A stretch of DNA of 64,000 bases, taken from contig CM000207.1 of NCBI GenBank assembly GCA_000002445.1, positions 2,496,001-2,560,000 on the forward strand. The letters run 5' to 3'. The notes under the pieces are model-generated. The model saw nothing but the letters and a program-made list of their open reading frames with translations. It ran no database searches and was not told where the DNA came from. Origin of the DNA: Trypanosoma brucei. Lineage: Eukaryota. Both the position numbers and the translations under genes were made by a program. Positions 43,367-48,627 of the stretch are shown piece by piece. Each line of letters begins with the position of its first letter. The stretch's first letter is position 1.

Positions 43367-46300
43367 CAGATTTTTTTTTGGAATTTGTTTCGTGCCTTCG
43401 TGAGAGTTTCCCCCCACTGGCGCGGCCATCAGCCATCACCGTAGAGCCCTGAAATGCTATCGGTCTGGCGACTGTGGCAGAGTCTCCCTTTTTTTATTCA
43501 TCCTAATACACCCTCTATAATTTTTGTTGTAGCTCCGCAGTTGAACGGAATACAGCAGATGGGGCGAAAAGCCACCCACTCTGGACTCTCCAAAAGATGT
43601 CAATTAGCAATCCTTTTGTTTTGACTTTTGTTATTCGTTTATTATTCTCTCCCCCTCTTTCTGTTCCTGTTGCTTGTTGACTGCATACCCCCTCTGTCTC
43701 TGAGGGTGTCTGGACTATTCCTGCGTCCGGTGCTTTTCCTGCTAGCTCCACACTCGGCAATAAGGGGGGAAGTTGCAGAAGGGAGAGTGGGTTGTATGAC
43801 TGTTACCTTAGGTGAGGACTTCACCTGCGGCAGGTTCCGTTCAACCGCAATGAGAAACTGCGCCAGCCTTTTAGAAAAACATACATCTTGCACACACACT
43901 CACCTTCTACCGCAAACCTGACACGTAACTCCTTCAAACAGGGGCAGCTCATCAAGTGCAGCGACGTTTCTTCGAAGTCGTCGGGTTGGCTGGTAACAGC
44001 GCGCTCTACCTTCATACCGTGCATCTTCTTTTGATGTAGGGTGAGGCCAGTTTTGCTAGCACACTGCCTTCCGCATGTCGGGCACACCAACATGGATGTG
44101 TTTGTATGCGGGGAATCAGTGGCACACAATTTTGTGCTTTTGCTGCATTTAAGCTCGACTCCCTCACCTTTGTGGAAAGCCTTACAATGTCGGATGAGGG
44201 AGTCCCTGCAACTGAGCACTTTTTGACACACACCACACTGCACCTCGCCTTTCCCAGTGGCGTCAACGTTTTCCTCACGGGCACGCTTACGAGGGAATTG
44301 CACCACCACTACGGTACCGTCCTCCGTCACTATGCTCTTATGTTTGAATTTCTTGTGTAGTGACAGGGAAGAGCGTGTACCGAAGCTCGCCTCGCACAGG
44401 TCACATTGAAACGGCAGCTTCCGTGTATCCTGAGAGACTGGCGCTGCTGGGGCTCTACCATCTCCTTGCACTGAGTCCTCGTTCTCTCGCCCCCTTTTCA
44501 CGCGGCAACTACCGCTGCCTATACCATGTATTGTTCTAAGGTGGTGTAATAGTCGGCCTGGCACTGCGAATTTGGAGGCACAGATGGTACAATGAAGTAC
44601 CTGCGGTCTCATCGGGACTCGTGTGCTCGATGGTAGAGGGACGATAGGCACCACTGGAGGGGGCTCCGGGGGGATATCCACTGCAGGTGTTGCATCGCCG
44701 TATTTGATCCTCCGGAGGGCATCAGCTCGCACAAAGCCGTGTTTGTTTACCATATGCGTTACAGCACTCGAGCGGCATTGGTATGTGGCATCACATTCCG
44801 TACATTTTGTCGGTTCGGAGGTTCTCTGAAGAGTGCGTGTCGCAACAGGTGGGGCTGTTTGTATTGTTGGTCCTATCGCTGCATGTTGCGGGTTACACCA
44901 TCGGCACTGTGGAGGCACACTCGGGTTAATCTTTCGCAACATCCATCCATAGTGCCTTGAAGACCCAACCCGAAAGCGTGCCAGTGCCGTTTCTTCTTCC
45001 CTCGTCAGTTCTTCTTTATGCTTTGTTGGAAAGTGGTTGCCCGTGATACCAAACCTATGAGTGTTCTCATGGACTTCTTCCGACCTAAGCACTCGCTTCG
45101 CATAAGCAATGATGTCGGGGATCCATGTGTCTCGCAACTGTGGTAAAGCTACGGCCTTTTTGGCCATTTCATCACAAACCTCATTCCGTTTCACGCCACA
45201 ATGGCCGAACACAAATTGCAGTCGGATACGCACTTTCCTTCTCTGAACTTGAAGCAGAAGCCTCCATAGTCGTCTTAGAATTGGGTCCGTTACGGCTAGG
45301 GGGCCTGTCTGCAGTGCTGTTAACATTGACAGCGAGTCAGAGAAGATGGATAACCTGCTCGGTGTGGTTCTGTATGCCGGAAGCCATTTCAGCAGCCGTT
45401 GCAGTCCTATCTCTAATGCTACGCATTCCGCTCTGTAACTGCATGAGAGTTCCCCTGCTCCGGTTTTGGGTGCACAAATAAGCGTATTGTTTCTATAGAG
45501 CAGGGCAACTGCTCCGGACTTCTCACCGAGGGACACGGATCCATCAGTCCACAATTCGTAGTGCTCTCGCCGCGGTAGCTCCTTCCCCCTCCGTGAAAAA
45601 TGCCGTTCAATCCACTTTTCGGAAGCCTCCCTTTTGACATCGTCAGGGTCATCAGCGCACACAGGCTTTATCTGCGTGTGAAATAGCGGTCGGCAGCTGT
45701 GGCGGAGCGTCGATTTCTCTAGTGGGTGCTCGCGTGGCTCAATGCGGAGGTGTGGATAGGACCGCATGATGCGGGAATGTAAGACTCTGACTGGGTGTTT
45801 GCTGTGGTATACTTCCTCAGCACTGCGCCGCAAACATCCGCCTCGTGACTCACACATCAGCATGAATTTCATGCTGCGCACAAGAGTGGCCATCTTGAGT
45901 GGCAGGAGGTTTGCTTCCAGCATTGAGTCCTCTTTGCGCGTCCCATGCGGTATGCCAGCTATGATGCGACTGGCTTTGTGTTGTGCTGCTGAGAGGAGGT
46001 CGCGACTCCGTTCCGAAGCGTCCCAGTACCATACCTCAATGCCATACATTGTGTGTGCCTGTACGAGTGCTAGATAAAAAGCTCTCAGTACTTGTCGTCT
46101 TGGCCCCCATGTAGAAGCTGAGATGGACACTATCTGCAGTAGTCGGAAGTCCATCTTGCGTCTCGTTTCGGCCGCATGTGTTGCCATCCCCTGCAGACAC
46201 TGGAATGTTACTCCTAGAAGCTTCGGTGTCCTGTCAGCTCCTATTCTTTCGCCGTCCAGTTGTAATGTAAGGGGGTGGCGCTCTATACACCCGAAGAGTG

Positions 46301-48627: not shown

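Follow-up and report, generated by a model that had tools for sequence, protein, structure and literature searches.

Identity and Extent of the Element

The 64,000-nucleotide stretch of Trypanosoma brucei DNA analyzed here (hereafter the window; coordinates are window positions) contains one full-length copy of a retrotransposon without long terminal repeats (a non-LTR element), ingi or Tbingi (copy 1), and the first part of another at its far end (copy 2). The neighboring open reading frames (ORFs) match the Pfam families VSG_B, Trypan_glycop and Trypan_glycop_C, identifying the window as an array of variant surface glycoprotein (VSG) genes. Copy 1 retains a 1526-residue ORF that carries every enzymatic domain in one frame, but both ends of the canonical ORF are displaced by frameshifts, and the element is most likely non-autonomous.

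Copy 1 was compared with eight ingi copies from T. equiperdum and one partial copy from T. b. gambiense. It is collinear from first to last base with L001, L002, L003, L006, L008 and L009, at 95.0-96.7% identity; a seventh collinear T. equiperdum copy, L005, lacks only its first 25 nt. The termini are CCCTGG at 48626 on the 5′ side and, on the 3′ side, a run of nine adenines that supplies the A-rich end expected of Tbingi. An earlier reading made from the letters alone (the sequence-only reading) had called a near-intact ingi at 43367-48627. Its identification and the near-complete length are borne out, and its ends are off by 4 nt and 1 nt, respectively (43371 and 48626). The nearest proteins in a large collection are "reverse transcriptase" entries from T. 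equiperdum and T. b. gambiense. Their 90% cluster consists mainly of fragments but includes one protein of 1656 aa, P0026 (RHW74236.1), which is encoded by an intact ingi at locus L001 of a public T. equiperdum assembly. The nucleotide identity of copy 1 to this intact example is 96.2%. Searches for exact matches to the 1526-aa protein, the 71-aa leader ORF and one VSG nearby gave no hit.

When the aligned copies are reduced to a majority consensus, a clean 1657-aa ORF results, starting at element nt 9 (48618) with MPATSTWCQGPV and ending in NRKRGRE. The main ORF of copy 1 corresponds to consensus residues 73-1575 followed by 23 frameshifted residues, and is 94% identical to P0026 over 1503 aa. 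The ORF listing, Pfam and motif searches agree with the sequence-only reading that apurinic/apyrimidinic endonuclease (APE), reverse transcriptase (RT), RNase H and C2H2 zinc-finger domains share this frame; the single long ORF with these domains that characterizes Tbingi is therefore present. The APE motifs QWN, SET, GADANAH, TPDVT and SDH were located, as were FVDYEKAFD, GVPQGTVLGP and FFADD in RT (FADD at 46422-46442) and TDGS, AEC, SDS and H..N..D in RNase H. The five fingers, of the form C-x2-C-x12-H-x3-5-H, occupy 44739-44804, 44526-44591, 44340-44405, 44172-44237 and 44019-44084. By motif location, APE, RT (FADD) and RNase H each keep all their catalytic residues; deletions of catalytic residues hidden by the open frame were looked for and not found. 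Family membership, full length, enzymatic domains in one frame with their catalytic motifs, and a known ingi 2A motif are all supported.

Displacement of Both Ends of the ORF

Relative to the consensus and to all other copies, copy 1 carries exactly two frameshifting insertions; apart from an in-frame TAG at the 5′ one, no other stop codon is present. The sequence-only reading had held that only the extreme 5′ region was out of frame, which does not stand, as a second frameshift lies near the 3′ end, at 43898-43899. The positions of both lesions, and of the other features of the element, are collected in Table 1.

The 5′ lesion combines a 1-nt insertion with a substitution. It creates a TAG at 48432-48434 in the frame of the main ORF, 11 codons upstream of ATG 48401, and uncouples the leader ORF from the main ORF. 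The leader agrees with the consensus and with intact P0026 at their N-termini, reading MPATSTWCQGPV...SLGT, and then continues out of frame as WLACHQQYHPH before terminating. In the canonical protein, which normally starts 72 codons upstream at MPATSTW, the ATG at 48401 encodes an internal residue, Met73. A functional ingi would read ∼1657 aa uninterrupted from the AUG at nt 9, and copy 1 does not. Three AUGs (at 48618, 48571 and 48538) precede ATG 48401, in other frames. The sequence-only reading was right that the 5′ region is split into a different frame, but it assigned that frame to an ORF at 48308-48655. That ORF (115 aa) exists; however, it is read in the third frame, which a private CATCGG>CATATG change opens, whereas the true displaced frame, that of MPATSTWCQGPV, spans 48403-48621. 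The change itself, at 48569-48571 near Pr77, introduces a new ATG and opens a spurious ORF of 115/87 aa. A single indel near 48401-48420 had been suggested to reunite the two frames. Removing the T of GGCTAG does rejoin leader and main ORF, but the site is 48434-48437, and removing the G leaves a TAG. Two changes, an insertion and a substitution, therefore make up the lesion, and their exact history is ambiguous.

The 3′ lesion, the GT insertion at 43898-43899, is private to copy 1 among seven aligned copies. It exchanges the last 83 residues for 23 unrelated ones. The canonical tail survives within an 85-aa ORF at 43642-43899, whose GTG start includes the inserted GT, and agrees with the C-terminal ends of P0026 and the consensus. 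The frameshift point falls just past a conserved C-terminal motif, EETSLHLMSCP.LKELR; within this region, EETSLHLMSCPCLKELRVRF aligns to the segment CEESAIHILQDCPALEGLRLAY of P0004, a distant ingi-like protein. Because P0004 remains alignable beyond the frameshift point, through ...RLAQFLI, a conserved C-terminal segment has been lost from the main ORF. Pfam searches with the 72-aa leader and the 83-aa tail returned nothing informative beyond the last zinc finger.

Table 1. Features of ingi copy 1 and neighboring sequence, in window coordinates
Feature	Position	Strand	Details
Full-length Tbingi non-LTR retrotransposon (copy 1)	43371-48626	−	5256 bp; end-to-end collinearity with T. equiperdum copies
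5′ flank with ingi4 target-site signature	48627-48660	−	8/10 match; putative 12-bp target GTATATTGTAGT at 48627-48638
Pr77 (77-79-bp 5′ hallmark)	48550-48626	−	Downstream promoter element (DPE) CGTG at 48599-48602; alignment to other copies
Leader ORF, canonical start frame	48403-48618	−	ATG 48616-48618; 71 codons; TAA 48403-48405
5′ lesion	48432-48437	−	ACGT-GCCAGCG changed to ACGTGGCTAGCG (+1 nt, one substitution); lesion proper 48434-48437
2A-like peptide coding region	48363-48428	−	AISSIIRTKMLLSGDVEENPGP; core DVEENPGP 48363-48386
Main ORF, 2A-APE-RT-RNase H-5xC2H2	43821-48401	−	1526 aa; starts MLLSGDVEENPGP
APE endonuclease domain	47733-48350	−	Pfam PF14529/PF03372 (Exo_endo_phos_2/Exo_endo_phos), residues 18-223
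Reverse transcriptase domain	46203-46931	−	Pfam RVT_1, residues 491-733, E = 3.8e-43
RNase H domain	45150-45563	−	Pfam PF00075 (RNase_H), residues 947-1084
Five C2H2 zinc fingers	44019-44804	−	Regular-expression search; also Pfam zf-C2H2_4
C-terminal motif conserved in non-LTR ORF2 C-termini	43914-43973	−	EETSLHLMSCPCLKELRVRF; alignment to P0004, P0008 and P0010
3′ lesion	43898-43899	−	+2 (GT) insertion in (TG)n run; frame shifted
Canonical C-terminal 83 codons	43642-43897	−	QDVCFSKRLAQFLIAVE...NRKRGRE, then stop; out of frame with main ORF
3′ untranslated region and A-run	43371-43641	−	A-run 43371-43379
ingi copy 2, first 482 nt	63519-64000	+	Runs past window end; inverted relative to copy 1

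The 2A-like Peptide and the 5′ Promoter Region

The sequence-only reading recognized DVEENPGP as the ingi 2A motif, and a six-frame search and the literature confirm it. A six-frame translation of the 64-kb window contains just two NPGP occurrences, each of them as DVEENPGP within the 5′ region of an ingi copy, so the match is not due to chance. The motif at 48363-48386 conforms to the C-terminal 2A pattern D(V/I)ExNPGP that copy 1 shares with the 2A of foot-and-mouth disease virus, ingi and L1Tc. Published 2A elements, however, are 18-30 aa long and depend on upstream sequence (PMC3708506, PMC3894237), and in non-LTR elements including Ingi and L1Tc they occur directly upstream of APE, at 40-80 aa from the N-terminus (PMC3708506). 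The ingi 2A has been reported to be active in reporter constructs (PMC3708506). The consensus has this arrangement (residues ∼64-85); copy 1 does not. Its 2A upstream sequence, AISSIIRTKMLLSG, does not differ from the one in intact ingi copies, but only the part from M (48401) onward falls within the open frame, the remainder being cut off by the in-frame TAG. Translation from ATG 48401 would give M-LLSGDVEENPGP, with just 12 residues ahead of the NPG/P site. The 2A core had also been described as immediately following the initiator Met, and this proves incorrect, as the canonical start is 72 codons upstream and the core comprises residues 78-85 of the 1657-aa consensus protein. In the T. vivax and T. 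congolense homologues, a 36-aa leader precedes DVERNPGP. A 2A-like motif at the start of an ORF is also seen in P0004 (1473 aa, Logan assembly), this distant ingi-like LINE (long interspersed nuclear element) protein being called from MHDIEPNPGP; a 5′ truncation or broken frame like that of copy 1 may be the cause.

Pr77 is the internal promoter and hepatitis delta virus (HDV)-like ribozyme region of the L1Tc/ingi clade, with a DPE of sequence CGTG at +25 to +28 (PMC4748587). The CGTG of copy 1 lies at exactly these element positions, and alignment with the other copies reveals five private substitutions in the first 77 nt. An Rfam scan of the element detected no HDV-like ribozyme or other significant family, its sole match being a chance small nucleolar RNA-like hit (E = 0.59).

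Divergence from the Consensus

The coding region of copy 1 differs from the consensus by 2.4% (119 changes in 4971 nt), comprising 54 synonymous and 64 non-synonymous differences where neutrality would predict 1:3. The corresponding non-synonymous counts are 30 for intact L001 and 18 for L006. Of 58 core amino-acid differences, 50 are seen in none of the 15 T. brucei-group proteins compared. Some of the changes (among them P571T, T746A and G136D) fall in non-catalytic columns that are conserved in distant relatives; P571T alters the conserved RT motif SYRPV(T/S)L, which reads SYRTV at 46893-46916. The balance of synonymous and non-synonymous differences suggests that the divergence was in part inherited from functional source elements and in part accumulated by neutral decay.

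Insertion Site and VSG-Array Context

The target-site signature of Tbingi, a member of the ingi4 subclade, was taken from PMC3820030. The 8/10 match in the 5′ flank of copy 1 is of a quality reached by 0.08% of window positions (score of at least 8/10), and the 5′ junction is probably the original insertion site. No second GTATATTGTAGT, which would complete a 12-bp target-site duplication, follows the A-run of copy 1; control copies L006 and L001 do carry target-site duplications. The two flanks also belong to different genes. The 5′ end adjoins an A-type VSG fragment (48627-48913) that starts mid-domain (Pfam PF00913 positions 174-245 of 367), whereas the 3′ end adjoins the 3′ tail of a different, B-type VSG pseudogene (41810-43370). 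Because no target-site duplication follows the A-run and a different VSG stands there, the 3′ flank appears to have been exchanged after insertion, and copy 1 sits at a point where the VSG array has been rearranged. Recombination of copy 1 with the inverted copy 2 was considered as the cause of the missing duplication but finds no support within the window, as the 3′ flank of copy 1 does not resemble the 5′ flank of copy 2.

Several further features were recorded. For copy 2, agreement of the 5′ flank with the target signature is only 1/10. The control copy L006 (2926-8178 of T. equiperdum CM010681.1) is a very young ingi with a perfect 12-13-bp target-site duplication, ATTTATTTCTTTG; it has the lowest divergence from the consensus and a single 1-nt deletion. 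Within the array, a 505-aa ORF at 53081-54598 (+) has no Pfam match at E ≤ 0.001, unlike its neighbors. The GC content of the window, read on the plus strand, alternates regularly between ∼34-37% and 42-47% every few kilobases, a pattern that fits tandem VSG genes and pseudogenes with AT-rich spacers between them; ingi forms the sole block of 52% GC.

Distribution of the 5′ Lesion

The comparison of copy 1 with copy 2 proposed in the sequence-only reading could be made, as copy 2 does begin at 63519. The two are 97.7% identical over 482 nt without indels (TLGEAAFFSV in copy 2, TPGEEVFFSV in copy 1), and they have in common the 5′ lesion and four other derived states. Their differences cluster at nt 1-80 and 386-430, with about 300 identical nucleotides between. 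Given the common derived states and the clustered differences, the two copies either form one sublineage or have exchanged sequence.

Used as a protein query, the leader ORF retrieved an ORF of T. b. gambiense that likewise reads WLACHQQYHPH. The retrieved ORF lies in L007 (T. b. gambiense FN554965.1, 6511 to ∼7090), a short element of ∼580 bp whose first 232 nt are 87.5% similar to the 5′ end of ingi/RIME and whose remainder is unrelated to ingi. L007 contains the identical GGCTAGCG, which includes the GGCTAG lesion. Seven T. equiperdum 5′ ends were examined and none carries the 5′ lesion; their leaders are intact or otherwise broken. The lesion is thus real and non-private, occurring in three elements from at least two assemblies. 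The simplest accounts of its sharing are trans-mobilization of a defective source element or gene conversion.

Comparison with Known Elements

Copy 1 shares with Tbingi (ingi/TRS-1, ingi4 subclade) a length of 5.25 kb, a Pr77 with DPE, the order leader-2A-APE-RT-RNase H-C2H2, an A-rich tail and the target-site signature. It differs from intact Tbingi in that two frameshifting insertions and the in-frame TAG cut the ORF from 1657 to 1526 aa, in the missing 12-bp duplication, and in the 50 amino-acid changes that none of the 15 compared T. brucei-group proteins shows. RIME has its first ∼250 nt and last ∼250 nt in common with ingi and relies on proteins supplied in trans, which is probably also the status of copy 1 (PMC2323293, PMC3820030). 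However, RIME lacks the central 4.7 kb, all of which copy 1 keeps; P0034 displays the RIME junction. L1Tc of T. cruzi, Tvingi and Tcoingi have the same domain order and a 2A-like peptide after a leader of 36-72 aa (PMC3708506), with P0002 and P0003 reading ...LLLISGDVERNPGP in the N-terminal region. Their proteins are only 35-42% identical to that of copy 1, and the leader sequences differ. The degenerate ingi/L1Tc-related elements (DIREs) are, like copy 1, non-functional relics of the ingi clade, but they are heavily mutated, whereas copy 1 is merely 2.4% off the consensus in its coding region and has two frameshifts.

Coding Competence and Proposed Fate

Canonical ingi is transcribed from Pr77, translated from the first AUG, processed by 2A skipping and inserted by target-primed reverse transcription (PMC3708506, PMC3894237, PMC4748587, PMC3820030). 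Translation from the AUG at nt 9 yields 1657 aa, and skipping at NPG/P frees a leader of ∼84 aa from the APE-RT-RNase H-zinc-finger protein, which acts at a T-rich target and generates a 12-bp duplication. RIME is mobilized in trans by ingi, of which "few retrotransposition-competent" copies are described (PMC3820030, PMC2323293); "several potentially active" ingi copies have already been reported.

In copy 1, the first AUG opens a dead-end ORF of 71 codons, the main frame contains a TAG and the C-terminus is replaced. Ribosomes that initiate at the first AUG would stop short of the enzymatic ORF, which would be accessible only past the three upstream AUGs. The 1526-aa product would be missing the conserved C-terminal end and have the changed RT motif. 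The enzymatic protein is thus predicted to be made poorly or not at all, and to be defective. The 3′ flank would have been swapped after insertion, and copy 1, like RIME, would be at most mobilizable in trans by intact ingi copies. Judged from its reading frames, copy 1 is not coding-competent for the canonical protein despite its intact catalytic residues, and is best described as a young pseudogene. We therefore favor, with a probability of roughly 85%, the reading that copy 1 is a full-length Tbingi lying antisense in a subtelomeric VSG array, decaying and most likely non-autonomous.

Several observations weigh against this assignment. An open frame of 4.6 kb persists, and none of the five zinc fingers or of the APE, RT and RNase H catalytic motifs is damaged. 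If the ∼64 non-synonymous changes were all neutral, ∼3 stop codons would be expected (0.054 per non-synonymous change); none is seen, which indicates that copy 1 is not old. The loss of autonomy is inferred, and presupposes a function for the 72-aa leader and the 83-aa tail. The 5′ lesion is common to three elements, and lesion-bearing elements could still be propagating. The +2 insertion, in a dinucleotide run, could in principle be an assembly error.

Three other explanations were weighed. The sequence-only reading proposed copy 1 as a candidate coding-competent, autonomous element, in which the start would be ATG 48401, with 2A directly after it, and the 1526-aa protein would suffice. The part of that proposal concerning catalytic motifs in an open frame stands, and a ratio of non-synonymous to synonymous divergence (dN/dS) of ∼0.4 is in its favor. 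Autonomy itself is very unlikely, however, as the canonical ORF has lost both of its ends by frameshift and, with them, the conserved C-terminal segment. The three AUGs ahead of ATG 48401, the 12 residues before NPG/P in place of an 18-30-aa 2A with upstream context, the changed RT proline and the missing target-site duplication also argue against it. It is similarly improbable that errors of sequencing or assembly produced one or both frameshifts and mask a complete or nearly complete 1657-aa ORF. The contexts, a (TG)n run for the +2 insertion and a neighboring G run for the +1 insertion, are prone to indel errors, but the 5′ lesion includes a substitution as well and is found unchanged in copy 2 and an independent T. 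b. gambiense assembly. Even without both indels, the private change in the RT motif and the missing target-site duplication would remain.

The recurrence of the 5′ lesion could instead mean that ingi/RIME elements carrying it form a sublineage that still propagates, with the leader turned into a separate 71-codon upstream ORF (uORF) and the main ORF translated by termination-reinitiation or leaky scanning, copy 1 having later been disabled by its private 3′ frameshift. The identical two-change lesion in both window copies and in the T. b. gambiense element is in keeping with this account. In addition, the leader stop (48403-48405) ends 1 nt before ATG 48401 (UAAGAUG), and stop-start coupling is known in other non-LTR elements, SART1 being cited in PMC3708506. 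Nevertheless, the TAA is embedded in the conserved codons ACT-AAG-ATG of every copy, and any upstream +1 shift would end there. The lesion is missing from the T. equiperdum 5′ ends, the leaders of other decayed copies such as L002, L008 and L009 are broken in different ways, and trans-mobilization or gene conversion explains the sharing with no new mechanism. We accordingly give this account little credence. The version in which the lesion marks such a sublineage and APE-RT is made at UAAGAUG by termination-reinitiation rather than by 2A skipping is highly improbable. If true, it would be a natural switch between two published ways in which non-LTR elements throttle ORF2 translation.

Implications

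The assignment of copy 1 as a decaying, probably non-autonomous Tbingi adds to a family whose domain organization, 2A peptide and few intact copies, like ingi itself, are already published. Its value is a corrected annotation, namely the exact ends, the true start frame, the two frameshifts, the absence of a target-site duplication and the junction in the VSG array. The long ORF alone would suggest that copy 1 is autonomous. The recurrent 5′ lesion is the sole point that could matter beyond annotation, as the mark of a sublineage, of gene conversion at 5′ ends or of an alternative mode of expressing the main ORF.

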